Assembly: GCA_016200645.1 (NCBI GenBank)
Contig: JACQEJ010000096.1
Coordinates: 1 to 48,151, forward strand
Direction of reading: 5' to 3'
From: Deltaproteobacteria bacterium
GTDB taxonomy: Bacteria; Desulfobacterota; GWC2-55-46; UBA9637
Length of the DNA stretch: 48,151 nucleotides
Part shown: positions 1,937 through 19,694 of the stretch, in pieces
Layout of the letters: each line of letters begins with the position of its first letter
How positions within the stretch are numbered: position 1 is the first letter of the stretch
Translations under genes and position numbers: made by a program
Notes under the pieces: model-generated
Told to the model about the DNA's origin: nothing
The model's input: only the letters and a program-made list of their open reading frames with translations
Database searches by the model: none

Positions 1937-2476
1937 ATGACTAAAAAATTATCTCCAACTCTCATAAAAAAGATAAAGCCCATTAAACTCTTGTGCCTTG
2001 ATGTGGACGGGGTTATGACCGATGGCTGCATTATCTATGACGATGACGGCAAAGAAATAAAGGTGTTTGATGTTAAGGACGGACACGGCATAAAGCTCCT
2101 GATGCGTGCAGGCATAGATGTGGCGATCATCACGGCAAGAGAATCCAATGTGGTGCTTCACCGCGCGAAAAATCTCGGCATAGAAACTGTCTATCAGAAG
2201 GCAATGGATAAGGTGGCGGCCTTTGAGGATATAGTTAAGAAAAAACAATTATTGCCAAACGAGGCTTCATATATGGGAGACGAACTGGTGGATATACAGC
2301 TTTTGCGCAGGGTTGGCTTTGCCGTTGCGGTTAAGGATGCGGTAGCTGATGTAAAAAAATATGCGGATTATGTAACTGCCAGAAACGGCGGTTATGGCGC
2401 TGTGCGAGAGATTTGTGATTTGATACTTAAAGTGCAGGGGAAGTGGGAGGAAGTAACGGCAAGGTATTTTGAGTGA
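1937..2476 (+). CDS. kdsC: 3-deoxy-D-manno-octulosonate 8-phosphate phosphatase (HAD-IIIA)
   Basis: LDVDGVMTDG, ITARES, MGDELVDI and GGYGAVRE motifs; 179 aa. Confidence 0.85.
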   Translation: MTKKLSPTLIKKIKPIKLLCLDVDGVMTDGCIIYDDDGKEIKVFDVKDGHGIKLLMRAGIDVAIITARESNVVLHRAKNLGIETVYQKAMDKVAAFEDIVKKKQLLPNEASYMGDELVDIQLLRRVGFAVAVKDAVADVKKYADYVTARNGGYGAVREICDLILKVQGKWEEVTARYFE

Positions 2477-2489
2477 TACAAAATTAAGA

Positions 2490-3407
2490 TCAATCCCTCG
2501 GCGCCTCCAGCATCCTGTCTAATGCCCTCTTTGCCTGTATTCTTATATCCTCCGGCACCTTTACAATTCTATCCATTCCCTGCAATGCCTCCAGCACATC
2601 TTCCAGCGTGATGAGTTTCATGTTCGGACAGATCAGACTTTTGGATGCAAGAATGAAAGTTTTATCCGGGTTTTCCTTTTTAAGGCGATAGAGGATTCCC
2701 ATCTCCGTGCCCACGATAATGGTCTTTGCCATTGTCTCTTTTGCAAATGCATACATTCCTGATGTGGAGCGCACGGCATCCGCAAGGTCAATCACCTCGG
2801 GCCTGCATTCAGGGTGGCAGACAAAGACCGCATCCGGATATCTTTCCTTTGCCTTTAAAACTTCAGCGGCTTTCAACTTTTCATGCGTGGGGCAGAAACC
2901 ATCCCACCACTCCATCTTTTTCTTCGCTGTCCTTGCAACATACATGGAGAGATTTCTGTCAGGTATCATGTAAACTTTTTCTGACTGCACGGAATTTACA
3001 ACCCTCACTGCATTTGCGGATGTGCAGCAGATGTCGCTCAATGCCTTTACTTCAGCGGTTGTGTTCACATACGTCACAACCGGCACACCGGGTCTCTTTT
3101 CCTTTTCTTTTTTCAAATCCTCTGCCGTTATCATATCTGCCATAGGACAGCCCGCATCAAGTCTTGGCAGGATAACGGTTTTATCGGGACAGAGGATAGA
3201 TGCGCTCTCTGCCATAAAATGCACGCCGCAAAAAACGATCACTTCCGCGTCCGATTTTGCGGCAGCCTGACTTAAAGCCAGAGAATCTCCGCAGATATCC
3301 GCCGCAGCCTGCACCTCGTCCCGCTGGTAATTGTGCGCAAGCATAAGGGCGTTTTTTTGTTTCAATAAAGCCCGGATTTCTTTTTGGAGGTCTTTGGTTT
3401 CTTTCAT
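2490..3407 (-). CDS. nadA: Quinolinate synthase A
   Basis: [23 protein letters not shown] and CPNMK motifs; 305 aa. Confidence 0.9.
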
Positions 3408-3434
3408 AAAAACAGGCGCGGGGTCAAAGGTATT

Positions 3435-4949
3435 TTATTTGGCGAGCCTTTCCTTGACCAGCTTATTCAACACCTGCGGATTTGCCTGTCCCTTGGTCGC
3501 CTTCATGGTCTGACCGATAAAAAAGCTGAAGAGTTTTTCCTTTCCTCCCTTATATTCAGCGACCTCTTTGGGATTGGCGGCAATCACTTCGTCTATCGCC
3601 TTTATCAATGCGCCCTCGTTTGAAATCTGGACAAGCCCTTTCCCCTTTACTATCGCCTCCGGGTCCTTGCCTGTTTTATACACATCCTCAAACACTTCCT
3701 TTGCGGTTTTTAAATTGATACTCCCTGCATCAACCATCTTGAGAAGTTTTGCAAAGGCTGAAGGCTGAATGCTGAAAGTGGAAGGCTGTGTTATATCTTT
3801 GCCGTCCTCTTTGATCAGCCTCAACAACTCCCCCATGACCCAGTTGGACACATTTTTGCCAGCAGTTCCTTGCCCCTTGCCCCTTGCCCCTTGCCCCTCG
3901 TATTTTTGGACGCACTCTTCATAATAATTCGCCAATTCCTTGCTTGCGGTTAAAACACCTGCATCATAGGAAGGGATGCCATATTCTTTTATAAACCTTT
4001 GTCTCTTTTTTGCCGGAAGCTCCGGCAAGGTATTTTTTATCTCCTCTATCCATGCCTCATCAATATGCAAAGGAAGCAGATCGGGTTCAGGAAAATAGCG
4101 GTAATCGTGCGCCTCTTCCTTGCTCCGCATGGAAACGGTTATCCCTTTATCAGAATCAAAGAGCAGTGTTTCCTGAATAACCTTGCCGCCGTCCTCTATA
4201 ACCTCTATCTGTCGGTTTACCTCGTAATCAATTGCCTTTTGCACAAATCTGAATGAGTTCATATTTTTAAGCTCTGTCTTTGTGCCAAATTCTTTCCGGC
4301 CCACAGGCCTTATGGAGACATTTGCATCGCAGCGGAAACTCCCCTCTTCCATGTTGCCGTCGCAAATCTCAAGGTAAACCAGTATGTCCCGGAGCGCTTT
4401 GAGATATTCCACCGCCTCTTCTGAATTGCGAATATCCGGCTCGCTCACAATCTCAATCAGAGGAACGCCAGCCCTATTCAAATCAACAAAGCTAAAATCC
4501 GCATCCTCATAGCTCTCGCCGTGAAGGAGCTTTCCTGCGTCCTCTTCCATGTGTATCCTTGTTATGCCGATGCGCCTTTTTGCGCCGTTTACCCCCACAC
4601 CAAAATCTTTGGTGTGGGGGTTTACTTCAATATCAACATAACCCTTTTGTGTCAGGGGTTGGTCATACTGGGAAATCTGATACCCCTTTGGCAGGTCAGG
4701 ATAAAAATAGTTCTTCCGCGCAAAGATGCTTTTGTCGTTAACCTTGCAATGCGTTGCCAGAGCCATCTTTATGGCATATTCAACCGCTACCCTGTTTAAA
4801 ACAGGGAGCGTTCCGGGCATTCCAAGGCAGACCGGACAGACCTGCGTATTCGCCTCTGCGCCGAATTTTGTGGAACACCTGCAAAAGACCTTTGAGTTTG
4901 TCAAAAGCTGGGCGTGGACTTCAAGACCGATAACGGCTTCATATTGCAT
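3435..4949 (-). CDS. gatB: Asp-tRNA(Asn)/Glu-tRNA(Gln) amidotransferase subunit B
   Basis: [35 protein letters not shown] and a GatB/YqeY tail. 504 aa, longer than typical GatB because of two repeat insertions. Confidence 0.95.
3868..3898. repeat. In-frame AAGGGGC heptamer tract (coding strand) inside gatB
   Basis: Plus strand reads ccttgccccttgccccttgccccttgcccct. Encodes [12 protein letters not shown] in GatB. Confidence 0.9.
4592..4620. repeat. Palindromic element family P1 (CCCCCACACCAAA..TTTGGTGTGGGGG), in frame inside gatB
   Basis: cccccacaccaaaatctttggtgtggggg flanked by gtttac on both sides. Encodes [12 protein letters not shown] between IEV and [19 protein letters not shown]. Confidence 0.9.
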
Positions 4950-12039: not shown

Positions 12040-14211
12040 ATGGACGACTTAAAAAAAATAACAGAACTCAGGGCAAAGATAGATGTCATTGACGACAAGA
12101 TTCTGGACCTCCTGAATAAGAGAGCGCGTCTTGTCATTGAGGTTGGCAAGGAAAAGGTAGAGGGGAAAAGGGATTTTTATGCGCCTGAAAGAGAAAAGGA
12201 GATATACAAAAGGTTGACCGGGAAGAATCCCGGGCCTTTTCCCAATCAAGCGTTAAAGAATGTATTCAGGGAGATTATGTCCGCTTCCCTTTCCCTGGAA
12301 CGACCTTTAAAGGCTAGTTATTTCGGTCCAAAGGCCACCTTTACCCATCAGGCGTGTATGGAGTATTTTGGCCTTTCCGCAGAATTTGTCCCTGAAAAGG
12401 ATATTGCAGATGTGTTTGAAGATGTGGAGAGGGGGAAGACAGATTTTGGCGTGGTGCCTATAGAAAATACCATAGAAGGGGTTGTAAGCCATACCATTGA
12501 CATGTTCGTAACCTCTGATATAAAGATATGCGGGGAGATAATTATGGAGGTATCCCTTTCCCTTTTAAATAAAACCGGCAGGATTGAAGATGTAAAAAAG
12601 ATATGTTCCTACCCCCATGCCATCGCTGAGTGTAGAGAGTGGCTCAGGGAGCATGTTCCGGATATTCCGGTTTTTGATGTGTCTTCAACGGCAATGGCTG
12701 CACAGACCGCAAGCGAAGATCCGTCAGCCGCTGCCATTGCCAGTGAATTTGCGGCAGCCATCTATGATCTGCAGGTTGTTGAAAGAAAGATAGAAGACCA
12801 TACAAATAATTTTACGAGATTTCTTGTTATCGGGAAGAAAAGCCCTGAAAGAAGCGGCGATGACAAGACATCTATCATGTTTGCAGTAAAGGATGTCCCT
12901 GGCGCGCTGTACAGGATTCTTAAACCATTTGCAGAAAAAGGGATAAATCTTACCAAGATTGAATCCAGGCCGCAAAAGGGCAAGGCATGGGAATATATAT
13001 TCTTTGCGGATATGGACGGCCATGTCTCGGACAGCAAGGTGTCCGATGCGCTCAAGGAGCTTGAGGCGCAGTGTTCTTTTATGAAGATACTGGAGGCCTT
13101 AGTTCCATATCCGCCTGGCAAGCCTATGGAAGAGCTTGAGAGGGAGTTGGGGATAAAAAATTCCATCAAACTTGCGTCCAATGAAAACCCGCTTGGGCCT
13201 TCGCCTAAGGCTGTGGAGGCTGTGGCAAAGGCGCTCAAAAATCTCCACAGGTATCCTGATGGCGGATGTTATTATCTCAAGGAAAAGCTGGCTCAGCGTC
13301 TCAAGGTGAAGCCGGAGAATCTCATCATCGGCAACGGCTCCAATGAAATCATTGAGCTTGTCATCAGGACATTTTTAAGACCGGGCGATGAGGCGGTCAT
13401 GGGCAACCCGTCGTTTGCCGTATATCCGCTGGTTGTGCCTGCGGCAGGCGGAAAGAGCGTGCTCGTGCCTTTAAAAAATCTGACCCACGATTTGGATGCA
13501 ATGTTTGACGCGATAACGGAAAATACAAAATTGGTATTCATTGCAAACCCGAACAATCCCACAGGCACAATGAATACCAAGGCGCAGCTTGATAAATTTA
13601 TCGGCAGGTTGCGTAACGATATAATCCTTATTCTGGATGAGGCGTATTATGAATTTGTTACGGATAAGGATTTCCCCGCTTCTTTGGATTATTTAAACAG
13701 CGGCAAGAATATTGTGATACTCAGGACATTTTCAAAGATTTACGGCCTCGCAGGTTTGCGCGTAGGCTACGGCATTGCGCCTGAAAAGCTCAACTTTTAC
13801 ATGAATAAGGTGCGGCAGCCCTTTAATGTAAACAGCCTCGCCCAGATTGCTGCGATGGCTGCCTTGGATGATGACGAGCATCTAAAAAGGTCTCAGCGAA
13901 ATAACAGGGAAGGGCTTGCGTATCTCTTTGGAGAGTTAAAGGCAATGGGGCTTGAGTGCGTGCCTACGCAGGCGAATTTCTTTCTTATCAAGGTGGGCAA
14001 AGGCAAAGATGTTTACCCCCACACCAAAAATTTTGGTGTGGGGGTTTACGATGCGCTTTTAAGACAGGGCGTGATTGTCCGACCGATGGCAAGTTACGGC
14101 CTCGGCGAATACATCCGCGTTACCGTGGGACTGCCTGAGGAGAATAAGAGGTTTGTGGAGGCATTGAAAAAGACAGTAAACAGTAGACAGGAAAAAGATG
14201 GTAGAGGGTAG
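12040..14211 (+). CDS. pheA: Fusion protein: chorismate mutase / prephenate dehydratase / ACT domain + histidinol-phosphate/aromatic aminotransferase (HisC-like)
   Basis: CM helix LRAKIDVIDDKILDLLNKRA. PDT motif YFGPKATFTHQA. ACT motif TSIMFAVKDVPGALYRIL. Then LVPYPPGKP..KLASNENPLGPSP and FSKIYGLAGLRVGY (PLP-lysine motif) with no intervening stop; 723 aa. Confidence 0.85.
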   Translation: MDDLKKITELRAKIDVIDDKILDLLNKRARLVIEVGKEKVEGKRDFYAPEREKEIYKRLTGKNPGPFPNQALKNVFREIMSASLSLERPLKASYFGPKATFTHQACMEYFGLSAEFVPEKDIADVFEDVERGKTDFGVVPIENTIEGVVSHTIDMFVTSDIKICGEIIMEVSLSLLNKTGRIEDVKKICSYPHAIAECREWLREHVPDIPVFDVSSTAMAAQTASEDPSAAAIASEFAAAIYDLQVVERKIEDHTNNFTRFLVIGKKSPERSGDDKTSIMFAVKDVPGALYRILKPFAEKGINLTKIESRPQKGKAWEYIFFADMDGHVSDSKVSDALKELEAQCSFMKILEALVPYPPGKPMEELERELGIKNSIKLASNENPLGPSPKAVEAVAKALKNLHRYPDGGCYYLKEKLAQRLKVKPENLIIGNGSNEIIELVIRTFLRPGDEAVMGNPSFAVYPLVVPAAGGKSVLVPLKNLTHDLDAMFDAITENTKLVFIANPNNPTGTMNTKAQLDKFIGRLRNDIILILDEAYYEFVTDKDFPASLDYLNSGKNIVILRTFSKIYGLAGLRVGYGIAPEKLNFYMNKVRQPFNVNSLAQIAAMAALDDDEHLKRSQRNNREGLAYLFGELKAMGLECVPTQANFFLIKVGKGKDVYPHTKNFGVGVYDALLRQGVIVRPMASYGLGEYIRVTVGLPEENKRFVEALKKTVNSRQEKDGRG
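14016..14044. repeat. Palindromic element family P1, in frame inside the aminotransferase part of the fusion gene
   Basis: cccccacaccaaaaattttggtgtggggg, again flanked by gtttac on both sides. Encodes YPHTKNFGVGVY. Confidence 0.9.
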
Positions 14212-15323: not shown

Positions 15324-16226
15324 ATGAAAGGGGCAAGGGGCAAGGGGCAAGGGGCAGGAGAAATACACTTTAATAAAGTTGCCATAATCGGCGTTGGTCT
15401 TATCGGCGGGTCCCTTGCGATTATTTTGAGAGAAAAGGGAATTGCAAAAAATATTGTCGGCATCGGCAGGGGGCTGAAAAATCTTGAGACTGCAAAAAAA
15501 CTCGGTGTTATTGATTCATACACGCAGGATGCAAGGGAGGGCGTCCGGGACGCAGACCTTGTTGTGGCTGCAATACCTGTTGCAGGTATTGCAAAGGTTA
15601 TAAAAGAAGCGCTGCCTTTGCTCAAGAAAGGCGCAATAGTCACAGATGTCGGGAGCGTCAAGAAAAACATTGTCGATGAAGTAGAAAAAATCCTTCCTGA
15701 TACAATTCATTTTGTCGGAGGCCATCCTATTGCGGGCACTGAGAATGCAGGCGTTGAGGCTGCATTTTCCACACTCTTCCAGAATAAGAGATGCATACTC
15801 ACACCTACCAAAAAAACGAATAAAGCCGCTTTGGGGAAGGTAAAAAAACTGTGGGAGATTGCAGGCTCTGAAGTAATCGTCATGGATGCGGAAAAGCACG
15901 ACAAAATCCTTGCCGCTGTAAGTCATCTGCCCCATGTTGTCGCCTATTCACTCGTGAACACCGTAAGCAACATAAATGATTTTAATGAAAGCATTATAAA
16001 ATATTCAGCAGGCGGTTTTAAGGATTTTACCCGCATTGCCTCAAGCCCGCCTGAGATGTGGCGGGACATCTGCCTTTTGAACAAAGACGCGATACTTGAT
16101 GTTGTCCTAAGATTTCAGAAGACGCTTAAAGGGCTGGAGGAGATGATAAAAGACAGCGATGGAGAGGGGCTTCAAAAGGAATTTGAAAAGGCAAAGGCAG
16201 TAAGGGATGGGTTGAAGAAGGGGTAG
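15324..16226 (+). CDS. tyrA: Prephenate dehydrogenase
   Basis: VAIIGVGLIGGS Rossmann motif and HPIAGTE motif. The N-terminal 11 codons are repeat-encoded. Confidence 0.85.
   Translation: MKGARGKGQGAGEIHFNKVAIIGVGLIGGSLAIILREKGIAKNIVGIGRGLKNLETAKKLGVIDSYTQDAREGVRDADLVVAAIPVAGIAKVIKEALPLLKKGAIVTDVGSVKKNIVDEVEKILPDTIHFVGGHPIAGTENAGVEAAFSTLFQNKRCILTPTKKTNKAALGKVKKLWEIAGSEVIVMDAEKHDKILAAVSHLPHVVAYSLVNTVSNINDFNESIIKYSAGGFKDFTRIASSPPEMWRDICLLNKDAILDVVLRFQKTLKGLEEMIKDSDGEGLQKEFEKAKAVRDGLKKG
15328..15358. repeat. In-frame AAGGGGC heptamer tract at the tyrA 5' end
   Basis: aaggggcaaggggcaaggggcaaggggcagg. Encodes [11 protein letters not shown] directly after the start codon. Confidence 0.9.
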
Positions 16227-16232
16227 GAGTTG
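16110..16232 (+). repeat. Direct repeat, left copy (authentic tyrA 3' end)
   Basis: 123 nt that recur at 17063-17185 with about 5 mismatches (aligned by eye). Confidence 0.9.
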
Positions 16233-16300: not shown

Positions 16301-16624
16301 ATGTCATTAAAGCAATCAGAAAAAAATGCCATTGGGGAGCTAAAGAAGGTTTTAAGTGAAAAATATAGCCTCCTTGATTTTCGCGTATTCGGCTCAAAAG
16401 CAAGGGACGAGGATACTTCCGAATCTGATATAGATATAATGATTGAACTATCTGAATTAAACCCGAGTATTGAGGCTGGTATTGACAAAACCATATTCAA
16501 TATCAATTTACAACACGACTGTTTTATATCCGCAGTGCTTTTCAGCAAGAAGGAGTTGGAAGAAGGTCCGCTTGACCAATCGCCGTTATACAGGGTTATA
16601 GAAAAGGAGGGAGTCTCTCTTTGA
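16301..16624 (+). CDS. Nucleotidyltransferase-domain protein (MNT-type antitoxin)
   Basis: FGSKARDEDTSESDIDIMIE (GS..D.D minimal NTase motif). 107 aa. 4-nt TTGA overlap with the next gene. Confidence 0.85.
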   Translation: MSLKQSEKNAIGELKKVLSEKYSLLDFRVFGSKARDEDTSESDIDIMIELSELNPSIEAGIDKTIFNINLQHDCFISAVLFSKKELEEGPLDQSPLYRVIEKEGVSL

Positions 16625-17031
16625 CCTCCGCAGAAAAAAGGCGCGAACTGGCCATTTATCGCTTGAAACAAGCCTCAGAAACCATTGATGAGGCAAAATA
16701 TCTTTTATCCGGCGGAAAAAGTCCCAGGTCTGTAATAAATAGAGTTTACTATGCAATGTTTTATGCCATCCTTGGCCTGCTGATATTTGAGCCTTACACA
16801 TCATCAAAGCACAGCGGAGTTTTATCCTACTTTAACCGCAGATTTATCAAAAGCGGTCTATTGCCAAATGACATTGGCGAAACCGTGAATATTGCATTTG
16901 AGATGCGCCAAAGAGGGGACTATAGGGAATATGTCGAGCTTACTTATGAACAGGTAGAACCTTTCATAGATAAAGCTGAGGGATTTATCAAGGCCATTCG
17001 GAATTATTTGTCGGAGAGCAAACTGATTTGA
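16621..17031 (+). CDS. HEPN-domain protein (toxin partner of MNT)
   Basis: 136 aa, helical. The only R..H dipeptide (RFIKSGLLPNDIGETVNIAFEMRQRGDYREY region) does not match a clean Rx4-6H motif, so the call rests on the paired position with the NTase gene. TTG start at 16621. Confidence 0.8.
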   Translation: MTSAEKRRELAIYRLKQASETIDEAKYLLSGGKSPRSVINRVYYAMFYAILGLLIFEPYTSSKHSGVLSYFNRRFIKSGLLPNDIGETVNIAFEMRQRGDYREYVELTYEQVEPFIDKAEGFIKAIRNYLSESKLI

Positions 17032-17062
17032 ATAAACGGTCGCTGTCCCTATTTTCTCTCAG

Positions 17063-17179
17063 AGATTTCAGAACACGCTTAAAAGGCTGGAGGAGATGAT
17101 AAAAGACAGCGATGGAGAGGGGCTTCAAAAGGAATTTGAAAAGGCAAAAGGGGTAAGGGATGGGTTGAAGAAGGGGTAG
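17063..17179 (+). pseudogene. Orphan duplicate of the last ~38 codons of tyrA, including the stop
   Basis: Translates to RFQNTLKRLEEMIKDSDGEGLQKEFEKAKGVRDGLKKG*, which parallels the true TyrA C-terminus. No upstream body. Confidence 0.8.
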
Positions 17180-17185
17180 GAGTTG
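17063..17185 (+). repeat. Direct repeat, right copy
   Basis: Matches 16110-16232. Together the two copies bracket only the MNT/HEPN pair. Confidence 0.9.
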
Positions 17186-17201
17186 TTGTAAGAAATCAAT
17201 T

Positions 17202-18152
17202 ATGAAAAAACCGGCAAACAATAAAAAAAAGAAAAAAACATCCAGCCTGCTTAATAAGTCAAGAGGTTGTAGCCCTTCTGAACCGGGTGAATTTTATATA
17301 TCCGAAGCGACAGTCTCTTACGGAAATAACGTCAAAAAGCCCTTCACGGTTTACTATGACAATCCGGAGCCATCTATTAGACTTCTCAAAGGTGATTGCA
17401 TTGAGATTTTAAATCAGGCAAGAGAAAACAGCGTTGATATGATTTTTGCCGATCCGCCGTATTTCCTTTCTAACGGAGGAATTACCTGCCATGCGGGAAA
17501 GATGGTTTCTGTAAACAAGGGGGCGTGGGATAAATCCAAAGGCGTTATAGAAAATCATAAGTTTATCCTTGAGTGGCTGAAAGCGTGCCAGAGGGTTTTA
17601 AAGCCTAACGGCACTATTTGGGTTTCCGGCACGACACATATTATTTACTCCATAGGCTTCGCGATGCAGGAACTTGGCTATAAGATACTTAACGACATTG
17701 TCTGGTATAAGCGCAATGCCCCGCCGAATCTTTCTTGCAGATATTTTACTCACTCCACCGAGATAGTTTTATGGGCAGCAAAGAATCAAAAGAGCAAACA
17801 TTGTTTTAATTATCCATTGATGAAGGAAATGAATCAGGGGAAGCAAATGCGGAATGTTTGGGAAATTTCTGCGCCACAGTCGGAAGAAAAAAAGTTCGGC
17901 AAACACCCTACTCAAAAACCTGTTGATCTTTTAACCAGACTAATACTTGCCTCTACAAAAGAAGGGGATTTGGTTTTAGATCCTTTTTGTGGGAGTTCAA
18001 CAACAGGGGTGGCGGCGATTTCACTGAACAGGAAATATGTGGGAATTGATTTAGAAGAAGATTATCTCAAAGTTTCTGTCAAAAGATTGGAAGAAGCTGC
18101 CGCAAATAAAGAGGCTAAACTGTTTATTGCTGGAAAGGTTGCGGGCTTATGA
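17202..18152 (+). CDS. DNA methyltransferase, beta-class (motif IV before motif I), probably N6-adenine (N4-cytosine not excluded)
   Basis: IFADPPYF (motif IV) lies upstream of LDPFCGSSTTGVAA (motif I). Lys-rich N-terminus; 316 aa. Confidence 0.85.
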   Translation: MKKPANNKKKKKTSSLLNKSRGCSPSEPGEFYISEATVSYGNNVKKPFTVYYDNPEPSIRLLKGDCIEILNQARENSVDMIFADPPYFLSNGGITCHAGKMVSVNKGAWDKSKGVIENHKFILEWLKACQRVLKPNGTIWVSGTTHIIYSIGFAMQELGYKILNDIVWYKRNAPPNLSCRYFTHSTEIVLWAAKNQKSKHCFNYPLMKEMNQGKQMRNVWEISAPQSEEKKFGKHPTQKPVDLLTRLILASTKEGDLVLDPFCGSSTTGVAAISLNRKYVGIDLEEDYLKVSVKRLEEAAANKEAKLFIAGKVAGL

Positions 18153-19498
18153 ATACTTTTAACTCTTTTTTTAAAACATTGTTGGGCAATTCCAATATTT
18201 CATTATCACGAAATTTATCTATTGATGAAATTAGATTTGTTATATCTAAAATTAACGAGTATTTTTATACCAACTATGAAGGTATTGGTCATACAAATAT
18301 TTTAGATGACGATTTTGAGTATTTTTCTGAGTTTCACAAATTTTGGGAAAAGTATCATAAAGAAATATTAAATCCCCAGATCGATGACAGCCAATGCTCG
18401 CTTGTTGCGAATGTTTTGCACGATGTGTTTATCAAATATGGCAGACCGCCTTTTTATGAGTTGTATAATACCCACGCATTAACGGCTGAAGAAATATGCA
18501 AGATAAGATATTTCTCTGCCAATCAGGATTTTAGAGGTTCAAGGGATTTTGAGGATTTGTTTGAAATATATAAAGATGACCCCAGTGTTTTTGATAAGGA
18601 AAATATCAATCAAAATCCAGAGGATTTTTTGAAGAATATTGGGATAACAAGTCTTTCACAGAATGACAAACGTGTTAAGTATGCTATTACTGCGTCCAAA
18701 CTTGTAATTGACAATAAAATAGAGCCTTATGAACTCTTGTCATTTTGTCAAAATGATATTGAAAAGGTAAGAAATCTTTTGATAAGTAATCGCGGTTCTG
18801 GTTTCGGCAATAAGAAGACAGATATGTTTTTGAGAGATATGGTTGTGTTGGGAGTTTGGAGAAAGCCAAAAAACTTTGATAAAATTGATGTTGCCAGTGA
18901 TATAAATACAGTCAAGGTTGCATTAAGAAGCAGGATATTGAAAACAGATATTGTTTTGATTAGTAGTTTTTTGGATATTTTCTGTTATCAATATGGTTTG
19001 ATTGATGATATGAATGCGAAGGCATGGCGGAGGGTATGGGAAATATGGAAAAATAAATATCCAAAGGAATGTATAGAAAGCCCATGCCTAATTGATTATT
19101 TTGCTTACAGAGTGATAGGCAAAGATTTTTGTAAGGAATCGCTATGTATATTTAAGTGTGAATCAGAAAATCATACTTTTAAATGGCATTCAGGAAGAAA
19201 TAAAACTTGCCAAATATGTTTCAAAAATAAGACAAAAAATAAAGCATATGTGCTTAATAAAATATTGCCTTGTACAGATACTCAAGGATATATAGTAATT
19301 GAAAAATCTAATTTTGTTTCCGGTGATAATCCATTATTGCCAAATCTCAAAGAATGTCCTTTTGAAGTTGCATGCAAACCCAAAACTGATATTTTTAAAA
19401 AACTGAACCCACCAAAATCTATAAGTATACTTGGCCAGACTGGATGGGAAAGTGCAAAAACAAGAGGTAATGAAGGTGGCGGTGGCTTAATGTCGTAG
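18149..19498 (+). CDS. Uncharacterised 449-aa protein with an endonuclease-III-like helix-hairpin-helix signature and a Cys-rich C-terminal region
   Basis: ATGA overlap with the methyltransferase stop. LLISNRGSGFGNKKTDMFLRDM..KIDVASDINTVKVALRSRIL resembles HhH-GPD (LPGVGxKTA..VDxHxxRV). Eleven Cys between residues 307 and 409, including CX4CX3C and CX2C. Visibly A+T-rich. Confidence 0.7.
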   Translation: MNTFNSFFKTLLGNSNISLSRNLSIDEIRFVISKINEYFYTNYEGIGHTNILDDDFEYFSEFHKFWEKYHKEILNPQIDDSQCSLVANVLHDVFIKYGRPPFYELYNTHALTAEEICKIRYFSANQDFRGSRDFEDLFEIYKDDPSVFDKENINQNPEDFLKNIGITSLSQNDKRVKYAITASKLVIDNKIEPYELLSFCQNDIEKVRNLLISNRGSGFGNKKTDMFLRDMVVLGVWRKPKNFDKIDVASDINTVKVALRSRILKTDIVLISSFLDIFCYQYGLIDDMNAKAWRRVWEIWKNKYPKECIESPCLIDYFAYRVIGKDFCKESLCIFKCESENHTFKWHSGRNKTCQICFKNKTKNKAYVLNKILPCTDTQGYIVIEKSNFVSGDNPLLPNLKECPFEVACKPKTDIFKKLNPPKSISILGQTGWESAKTRGNEGGGGLMS

Positions 19499-19532
19499 TA
19501 TATAAAACATTCATTTAACTAAGGGAGGATTC

Positions 19533-19694
19533 GTGCCAAAATTTTGTGTAGACTTTGAATTCGCCGGACATGTTGAAGTTGAGGCTGAAAATGAGGAAGA
19601 GGCTAAAAAAATTGTGGAAGGCATGAATCTTGATAAACTTGCAGAGCATGTCCAAAACTTCAATGTCGGCAGACATTATGTTGAGGGAGTATGA
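19533..19694 (+). CDS. Small acidic hypothetical protein (53 aa), GTG start
   Basis: AAGGGAGG at 19521-19528 shortly before the GTG at 19533. Open to the TGA at 19692-19694. Not in the supplied ORF track (below its length cut-off). Confidence 0.4.
   Translation: MPKFCVDFEFAGHVEVEAENEEEAKKIVEGMNLDKLAEHVQNFNVGRHYVEGV

Follow-up and report, generated by a model that had tools for sequence, protein, structure and literature searches.

Restriction enzymes are nearly all phosphodiesterases, the sole known exception being the PabI family, a structural oddity; according to a 2023 review, all restriction enzymes outside the PabI superfamily are phosphodiesterases (PMC10273834). R.PabI, which was discovered through the co-mobility of its R and M genes, excises unmethylated adenine from GTAC, has apurinic/apyrimidinic (AP) lyase activity and is blocked by the cognate N6-adenine methyltransferase (PMC10273834, PMC7229829). 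For DpnII-type cassettes, a dpnM-dpnA-dpnB organisation has been described, DpnA being a single-strand DNA methyltransferase used in transformation (PMC3812788). QNG1, for its part, has only two residues that are invariant between it and the DNA glycosylases, namely the Lys and the Asp of the helix-hairpin-helix (HhH) motif; a beta-hairpin insertion inside its HhH closes the DNA cleft, and its C-terminal carboxylate inserts into its own active site (PMC9881137). Here we analyse a stretch of 48,151 nucleotides from a deltaproteobacterium (assembly GCA_016200645.1, contig JACQEJ010000096.1, positions 1 to 48,151; hereafter the window), in which the gene of a DNA methyltransferase overlaps that of a 449-residue protein, X449. 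We give odds slightly better than even to X449 being a methylation-blocked, GATC-directed restriction glycosylase/AP lyase that belongs to a methyltransferase-protected module.

The two open reading frames (ORFs), of 316 and 449 aa, share the ATGA at 18149–18152 (...ttATGAat...), as had been pointed out in a first-pass annotation made from the letters of the window:

17202 to 18152, forward strand: beta-class N6-adenine (N6/N4) DNA methyltransferase of the DpnA/CcrM/HinfI type (PF01555, PADLOC MTase_II, match to CcrM)
18149 to 19498, forward strand: X449, a 449-aa protein with a predicted HhH-GPD-superfamily glycosylase fold, candidate restriction glycosylase/AP lyase (AlphaFold, Foldseek, homologue clusters)

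X449 is predicted to be a glycosylase of the HhH-GPD superfamily

Sequence searches connect X449 with its own relatives only. Nothing credible was retrieved from Pfam, NCBIfam, PADLOC or PHROGs, PF00730 is not matched in Pfam even at an E-value (E) of 10, comparison with PDB sequences, by phmmer and with a profile, gave chance-level matches only, and no curated family covers it (Pfam 2025, NCBIfam 2026, PADLOC). When 1.8 billion representatives were searched exhaustively with phmmer, 135 matched, all from X449's own family, and a word-indexed search found 879 homologue clusters from bacteria and archaea; every cluster listed is annotated as hypothetical. The best 120 of the 879 clusters are 57–88% identical to X449, the window's own entry aside, and come from very different phyla.

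The fold was predicted with AlphaFold, for the full-length protein (residues 1–449; predicted local distance difference test (pLDDT) 85.7, predicted template modelling score (pTM) 0.84) and for its core (residues 1–330, model m04cc9a4e65f9; pLDDT 91.7, pTM 0.88). Both models are two-lobed and mainly alpha-helical with a central HhH, as in the HhH-GPD superfamily. When they were compared with the PDB by Foldseek, the top 11 matches of each were QNG1/DUF2419 structures (E 1.8e-4 to 7e-4, probability 1.0, template modelling (TM) score 0.52–0.60; for the core model against 7ugk, E 1.8e-4 and TM 0.55–0.57). These were followed by OGG1, M. jannaschii Ogg, archaeal AGOG, MutY, EndoIII and NTHL1, and with both models all matches with a probability above 0.2 were members of the HhH-GPD superfamily. 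With neither model did a nuclease or a PabI-family structure appear among the first 50 Foldseek matches, and neither Pfam, NCBIfam, PADLOC nor the significant Foldseek matches revealed a PD-(D/E)xK, HNH, GIY-YIG or PLD phosphodiesterase fold in X449.

The features on which the assignment rests are the following:

18149 to 19138, forward strand: two-lobe glycosylase domain, residues 1–330 (Foldseek match to QNG1/DUF2419 over about 306–322 columns)
18758 to 18847, forward strand: helix-hairpin-helix, residues 204–233 (helix, GSGFGNKK hairpin, helix), with the codon of K222 at 18812–18814 (DSSP, hhalign)
18899 to 18901, forward strand: codon of D251, the predicted catalytic aspartate, within VASDINTVKVALR (hhalign; invariant)

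A profile of 24–25 diverse X449 family members was aligned by hhalign with E. coli EndoIII, in the sequence of the full-length 2abk chain. A single match was obtained (P about 8e-4), which lies exactly on the HhH-GPD motif and pairs G218-x-G220-N-K222 with G116-V-G118-R-K120 of EndoIII, and D251 with D138. K222, which is invariant, is thereby aligned to the lyase-lysine position (K120 in EndoIII, K249 in OGG1), and D251 follows the Gly-rich hairpin at the distance of about 20–30 residues that is usual for the catalytic Asp of HhH-GPD enzymes. Conservation was scored in alignments of 25 and 38 diverse family members: D251 is invariant in both, G218, K222, R229 and D230 are invariant among the 25, and the residues invariant in alignments reaching 23% identity are R120, Q126, R175, G218, K222, R229, D230, W237, D251, D276, Q281 and Y282. 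According to DSSP, both models contain a short canonical hairpin between helices 204–213 and 221–233. In the 25 members scanned, the only related Pfam matches came from divergent members and were below threshold: DUF2400, which covers the HhH region (E 9e-5; 23.1 bits vs a cut-off of 25), Q_salvage and Ogg-HhH; PF10343 was matched by 2 of the 25 (E 0.007–0.04, below cut-off).

We conclude with high confidence that residues 1–330 form a HhH-GPD-superfamily glycosylase domain in which both catalytic residues are kept, the Lys standing at the position used by bifunctional glycosylase/lyases. The first-pass annotation had read a HhH-GPD layout from the sequence, quoting the HhH-like stretch GSGFGNKKTDMFLRDM...DVASDINTVKVALRS (residues 216–261), and had proposed a structure search with an AlphaFold model; its reading holds, since the similarity is found with both models, at a Foldseek probability of 1.0 for the best matches, and K222 and D251 fall on K120 and D138 of EndoIII. 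It was also right in seeing no PD-(D/E)xK, HNH or GIY-YIG motif, and known nuclease families are unmatched. Its choice of EndoIII and MutY as nearest kin has to be revised, QNG1/DUF2419, OGG1 and AGOG being closer by Foldseek.

The family is present in 170 of 185,579 species genomes of bacteria and archaea. Its members include Segatella/Prevotella, Akkermansia, Treponema and Clostridia from the human and animal gut and, among archaea, Heimdallarchaeota; plasmid, phage and IMG/VR collections yielded no copies. Cultured carriers include Segatella copri HDD04, Acetivibrio straminisolvens JCM 21531 and Lachnospiraceae bacterium RM5, and two complete Heimdallarchaeum chromosomes have methyltransferase and X449 but no DpnII. 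In 80 genomic copies that were inspected, internal stops are absent throughout. The public annotation of the window's gene (HY266_06455, 433 aa) begins 16 codons after the start that overlaps the methyltransferase gene (18149–18196); the 449-aa start is supported by the conservation of the N-terminus in homologues.

X449 is a conserved component of DpnII/MboI-type GATC cassettes

We looked up or scanned 99 loci of the family and classified the layout of 89 of them according to the genes beside X449:

41 loci: D12 (Dam/DpnM-like) methyltransferase, PF04556 DpnII endonuclease and N6_N4 methyltransferase
18 loci: D12 and N6_N4 methyltransferases, no DpnII
16 loci, including the window: N6_N4 methyltransferase only
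6 loci: D12 methyltransferase only
2 loci: DpnII and N6_N4 methyltransferase
2 loci: DpnII only
4 loci: none of these partners

A methyltransferase adjoins X449 in 81 of the 89 loci, and seven of the eight others lie at a contig edge or on a contig shorter than 4 kb, so that the partner could be off the contig. The survey of homologues that the first-pass annotation had called for thus shows the linkage to be conserved family-wide, down to 23% identity: the most divergent members (23–33% identity) also adjoin an N6_N4 or D12 methyltransferase, and in one of these loci (L091) the two genes overlap by 4 bp. Because D12, DpnII and N6_N4 neighbours recur across the family, we assign X449 to the GATC-type cassettes, an affiliation that the first-pass annotation could not have seen. 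The gene order of the four-gene cassettes is variable, and two-gene modules consisting of D12 and X449 are directly flanked by housekeeping genes in L043, L054, L060 and L088.

The partners are of three unrelated adenine methyltransferase kinds, namely D12, beta-class N6_N4 and permuted N6_N4, the last sharing only the FxGxG region with the beta-class enzyme of the window. X449 seems to need methylation, not one particular methyltransferase protein. Every partner methyltransferase belongs to PF01555 (N6_N4) or PF02086 (D12), and none is a C5-cytosine enzyme.

In the 48-kb window, neither a DpnII nor a D12 gene was found, the module consisting of the N6_N4 methyltransferase and X449 only. The methyltransferase matches PF01555 N6_N4_Mtase (E 4e-61) and PADLOC MTase_II (E 3e-100), and its motifs follow the order of the beta class, DPPY (nucleotides 17451–17462) coming first and FxGxG lying towards the C-terminus; these matches agree with the earlier description of a beta-class DPPY enzyme. 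Its closest PDB relatives are CcrM (1e-61) and then H. pylori 'DpnA' (1.5e-31), and it is 51–62% identical to methyltransferases found inside cassettes that contain D12, DpnII and X449.

The make-up of these loci bears on the possibility that X449 is an auxiliary DNA-processing factor of DpnII systems and no stand-alone restriction enzyme. It might, for example, act only on GATC DNA that is single-stranded or hemimethylated, as in transformation or replication, in concert with the DpnA-like single-strand methyltransferase, or else on the ends made by DpnII. Such a role would fit the intact DpnII gene found beside X449 in 41 loci, as well as the fact that a DpnA-like N6_N4 methyltransferase is X449's most frequent neighbour. 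However, X449 is the sole non-methyltransferase partner, with the DpnII gene absent, in the window and 39 other loci, and six of these 40 loci pair X449 with a D12 methyltransferase only. We regard the auxiliary role as distinctly improbable.

The methyltransferase and X449 are also mobile together with s53, a 53-aa ORF that follows X449 in the window (see below). Another deltaproteobacterial metagenome-assembled genome (MAG; locus L010) shares with the window only positions 17340–19685, at 82% nucleotide identity, between unrelated flanks; this block comprises the methyltransferase, X449 and s53. In a sister genome (L097, GCA_016219285.1), the operon in which the window's module lies and the nucleotidyltransferase/HEPN pair that precedes the module are kept at 82–88% identity, and positions 2420–3978 correspond to 17056–19498 of the window. 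There, window positions 17056–19256, i.e. the methyltransferase and codons 1–366 of X449, have given way to 1.3 kb in which a 100-aa ORF and an NmeDI_C-domain protein of 244 aa are encoded; there is no methyltransferase in the vicinity. The last 83 X449 codons (surviving as an ORF) and s53 remain at 90% identity. The sister genome has thus lost the methyltransferase and, with it, the catalytic part of X449. In L024, the methyltransferase and X449 are in the opposite order. The methyltransferase-X449-s53 unit moves as a block, and the best explanation for the methyltransferase and X449 is that they form a compact, horizontally mobile restriction-modification module.

GATC avoidance in X449 hosts

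GATC occurs 57 times in the window for 203 occurrences expected from a maximal-order Markov model (observed/expected 0.28). In flanking host DNA, its observed/expected ratio is 0.44 when pooled (median 0.31) for the 34 loci without a nearby DpnII gene, and 0.39 (median 0.35) for the 32 loci with one, as compared to 0.80–0.96 for the control palindromes CATG, TGCA and AGCT and 0.69–0.84 for GTAC. Several hosts that carry only D12 and X449 have no GATC at all in 6–10 kb of flank; about a quarter of the loci show no GATC depletion. Host DNA is about threefold depleted in GATC both with and without DpnII, and hosts with X449 but without a DpnII gene in the cassette show restriction-like pressure on GATC. 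Given this flank depletion and the DpnII and Dam-like neighbours, GATC is likely the family-wide site. GANTC was also considered and was rejected: it is near expectation in the window (117 observed vs 142 expected, about 0.8) while GATC is threefold depleted, and the orthologous methyltransferases sit in DpnII cassettes.

The avoidance of GATC also weighs on a repair function of the kind fulfilled by Vsr or Mig.MthI, the second of the two readings offered by the first-pass annotation. X449 would then be a glycosylase specific for a sequence context, removing a lesion or mismatch at or near methylated GATC, for instance a deaminated or aberrantly alkylated base arising as a by-product of the adenine methyltransferase, and would leave unmethylated DNA unharmed. 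Repair is the classical function of HhH-GPD enzymes, and the overlap of the X449 gene with the 3' end of the methyltransferase gene resembles dcm-vsr. Furthermore, X449 stays with methyltransferases whether or not DpnII is there, including in cassettes that already hold a restriction enzyme, and it is more conserved than DpnII. On the other hand, its partners are of the N6-adenine type (PF01555, PF02086) rather than C5-cytosine enzymes, and we know of no N6-methyladenine-specific mutagenic lesion that requires a dedicated glycosylase. The Lys at the lyase position is invariant, and hosts with methyltransferase(s) and X449 only avoid GATC as strongly as DpnII carriers, although other GATC systems may be encoded elsewhere in these genomes; such avoidance would not be expected from an orphan methyltransferase paired with a repair enzyme. 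We consider a repair accessory unlikely and favour the other reading of the first-pass annotation, a restriction glycosylase, because the partners are of the adenine type, two-gene modules of methyltransferase and X449 exist, and the hosts avoid GATC.

An enzyme of the opposite specificity, dependent on N6-methyladenine (type IV-like) or erasing it, was rejected: X449 co-occurs with GATC methyltransferases, and such an enzyme would attack its own genome.

The C-terminal region of X449

Beyond the glycosylase domain, X449 comprises two further elements:

19130 to 19375, forward strand: Cys/His-rich region, residues 328–409 (family alignments, Pfam matches of homologues)
19394 to 19495, forward strand: C-terminal tail FKKLNPPKSISILGQTGW...GGGGLMS, reaching to the last residue (invariant or nearly so in family alignments)

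The Cys-rich tail noted in the first-pass annotation, which had placed it where EndoIII and MutY carry their iron-sulfur loop, is indeed there, with C-X4-C-X3-C (C328/C333/C337) and C-X2-C (C354/C357) motifs in the window's protein. The cysteines conserved family-wide are C328, a second one 5–8 residues further on (about C337), C403 and C409 (C-X5-8-C ... C-X5-C). Between these pairs lies an insert of about 65 residues, containing H342, H347, C354-X2-C357 and C375, which varies in length, is missing in some members, and in homologues matches the Pfam families Zn_ribbon, DUF7129 and HypA. Much of the region is a variable, zinc-ribbon-like insert. In the hhalign comparison with EndoIII the HhH region alone was aligned, the X449 cysteines being left unaligned to the iron-sulfur loop, whose C-X6-C-X2-C-X5-C spacing in EndoIII/MutY contrasts with C-X8-C ... 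65 residues ... C-X5-C in X449. An iron-sulfur cluster in X449 is no more than a possibility. The zinc-ribbon and tail region is basic (isoelectric point (pI) 9–9.5), and the final 35 residues, NPPKSISILGxTGW...GGGGLM[S/A], show no variation up to the C-terminus, a stretch for which the model has low pLDDT.

This invariance up to the last residues would suit a QNG1-like hydrolase at the nucleotide or metabolite level, which would split the glycosidic bond of a free nucleotide or nucleoside connected with methylation, for instance N6-methyl-deoxyadenosine monophosphate from DNA turnover or S-adenosylhomocysteine, with the C-terminal tail in the active site; so would the fact that QNG1/DUF2419 is the best structural match across the whole 330-residue domain. 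Nevertheless, X449 has a short HhH hairpin of canonical form in both models and lacks the beta-hairpin insertion by which the DNA cleft is blocked in QNG1, and a basic zinc-ribbon and tail region is appended to the domain. Moreover, the family is tied to GATC cassettes, to three unrelated kinds of methyltransferases and to GATC-depleted hosts, which argues for a role at the level of DNA sequence and not for a generic metabolite role. We hold a QNG1-like activity to be very unlikely.

Proposed mode of action

From the predicted structure and the gene context we infer that X449 is probably a restriction glycosylase that would act on DNA, at GATC, by excising adenine, would be blocked by methylation, and would be toxic when this protection is lacking. 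The methyltransferase would N6-methylate the adenine of GATC, a site suggested by orthology and context. X449 would grip DNA by its helix-hairpin-helix and its basic Cys-rich and C-terminal part, and would flip one base of a GATC lacking methylation, in the simplest case the adenine, into its pocket, from which an N6-methyl group would be barred. D251 would then break the N-glycosidic bond, and a Schiff base formed by K222 would lead to beta-elimination and cleavage of the strand at the abasic site. Since GATC is palindromic, both strands would be attacked at adjacent base pairs, giving an unligatable double-strand break. In DpnII-type cassettes, X449 would add to DpnII an attack by different chemistry on the site that both recognise.

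Several observations weigh against this proposal. X449 carries no nuclease-type motif; QNG1, which it most resembles in structure, has a mononucleotide rather than DNA as its substrate and keeps its C-terminal tail in the active site, the C-terminus of X449 being likewise invariant. About half of the cassettes already encode DpnII for the same site, so X449 could be an accessory. In these cassettes, the median pairwise identity is 56% for X449 vs 42% for DpnII and 48% for D12: X449 evolves more slowly than either, which is atypical of restriction enzymes. One locus (L086, a 6.4-kb contig) has X449 without a methyltransferase in reach. As to the site, the best solved relative of the window's methyltransferase is CcrM, which recognises GANTC, and for this reason we only infer the GATC specificity of the window copy. 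Other palindromes are also depleted in the window (observed/expected: CTAG 2/40, GTAC 13/68, ACGT 18/62, TCGA 35/73), which suggests pressure from several restriction systems, and the hosts could possess further GATC endonucleases encoded at other places in their genomes.

A broader version of the restriction glycosylase proposal, which we advance tentatively and rate at a little under an even chance, is that X449 founds a second, independent class of base-excision restriction enzymes: GATC adenine glycosylase/AP lyases with the HhH-GPD fold, blocked by methylation, able to serve as the sole restriction partner of any GATC adenine methyltransferase and, in many prokaryotes of the gut and the environment, attacking one site alongside DpnII with a second chemistry, the tail possibly being a QNG1-like plug that gates the active site. 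If X449 is a restriction glycosylase, it would be the first one with a HhH-GPD fold; base excision would have evolved as a means of restriction on at least two occasions, a family of repair enzymes would have been turned into a weapon directed at a specific sequence, and the well-studied GATC cassettes of the DpnII/MboI type would contain a fourth component that has been overlooked. Adenine methylation could, in addition, be mapped with a GATC-specific glycosylase as reagent.

s53 and the setting of the module

The ORF that follows X449 had been picked out in the first-pass annotation as a 53-codon acidic ORF with a strong ribosome-binding site, and has both properties:

19533 to 19694, forward strand: s53, a 53-aa acidic ORF (pI 4.7) with a GTG start at 19533 (AGGGAGG Shine-Dalgarno sequence 5 nt upstream)

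The s53 family comprises 13 clusters; s53 matches the phage family phrog_14649 (E 1e-7) and, weakly, DpnD/PcfM (E 0.0014). Homologues accompany the module in its closest relatives (L010, L011). In L097 and in a Nitrospirota MAG (L099, positions 4001–4165), an s53 homologue follows an NmeDI_C gene, with an adjacent N6_N4 methyltransferase gene in L099 only. We rejected s53 as a dedicated partner of X449, because its homologues follow other restriction-modification genes, as in L099; it may accompany restriction-modification modules in general.

The G+C content is 0.32–0.33 across 18–19.5 kb vs 0.45–0.47 on either side, so the A+T richness of the 449-aa gene, previously judged by eye, is real. 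The module sits within an aromatic-amino-acid operon, with genes resembling pheA/hisC, DAHP synthase and prephenate dehydrogenase upstream, and genes resembling EPSP synthase, cmk and ispH downstream. A 723-aa ORF of the window (12040–14211) appears from its translation to be a chorismate mutase/prephenate dehydratase-like half fused to an aminotransferase-like half. The nucleotidyltransferase/HEPN pair (16301–17031) lies immediately before the module and is bracketed by a 123-bp direct repeat (16110–16232 and 17063–17185, 96% identical), made of the 3' end of the prephenate-dehydrogenase-like gene and downstream sequence; it looks like a duplication that resulted from insertion of the pair.

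Some cassettes have peculiarities of their own. In Kuenenia stuttgartiensis (L001, 5401–5847), a 148-aa ORF that matches no family lies between the N6_N4 methyltransferase and X449 genes; a relative of this ORF, 47% identical to it, occurs in a cassette from Goldiibacteriota (L025, 8603–9193). In Acetivibrio straminisolvens JCM 21531 (L017, 4047–4978), the DpnII-like gene, probably a pseudogene, is divided between two overlapping ORFs, X449 and both methyltransferases being intact. In L093 (1412–1678), a gene of the ArsR winged-helix type, in the opposite orientation, separates the D12 methyltransferase from a divergent X449 homologue, whose expression it could control.

Comparison with known systems

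In the literature searched, which included few subscription papers and did not cover REBASE, we found no description of a restriction enzyme of the HhH-GPD type, nor of DpnII cassettes that contain a glycosylase gene. The DpnII/MboI/LlaDCHI-type cassettes are the setting of many X449 homologues, which sit inside them with D12, DpnA-like N6_N4 and PF04556 DpnII genes; as compared to the dpnM-dpnA-dpnB organisation, X449 is a fourth gene, not described for those systems. Some GATC cassettes may carry two endonucleases.

Structurally, X449 resembles the QNG1/AGOG/OGG1 branch over about 300 residues, at 8–16% identity and with no Pfam match at threshold. The spacing between the Lys and the Asp is 29 in X449 vs 32 in QNG1; X449 lacks the HhH insertion of QNG1 and has in addition the Cys-rich zinc-ribbon region and an 80-residue C-terminal part. 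QNG1, OGG1 and AGOG have no iron-sulfur cluster, and their context is queuosine salvage or oxidative repair, whereas that of X449 is methyltransferases. With EndoIII and MutY, the latter an adenine glycosylase, X449 has in common the aligned HhH-GPD motif (K222/K120, D251/D138) and cysteines located C-terminal to the catalytic domain, but PF00730 is not matched, the Foldseek E-value is only about 1, and the cysteine pattern differs.

With regard to gene organisation, Mig.MthI (Mig being a HhH-GPD protein) and Vsr are likewise repair-type enzymes whose genes are tightly linked to a methyltransferase gene, as is that of X449, which in the window overlaps it. However, Mig.MthI and Vsr accompany C5-cytosine methyltransferases and fix the T:G mismatches that result from deamination of 5-methylcytosine, whereas the partners of X449 are of the adenine type.

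Finally, it is in its proposed function that X449 resembles R.PabI, R.HpyAXII and R.CcoLI (HALFPIPE superfamily). Structures of PabI, HpyAXII and CcoLI are absent from the 50 best Foldseek matches of either X449 model; the folds are unrelated, X449 being all-alpha, two-lobed and of the HhH type, and its probable site is GATC, not GTAC.

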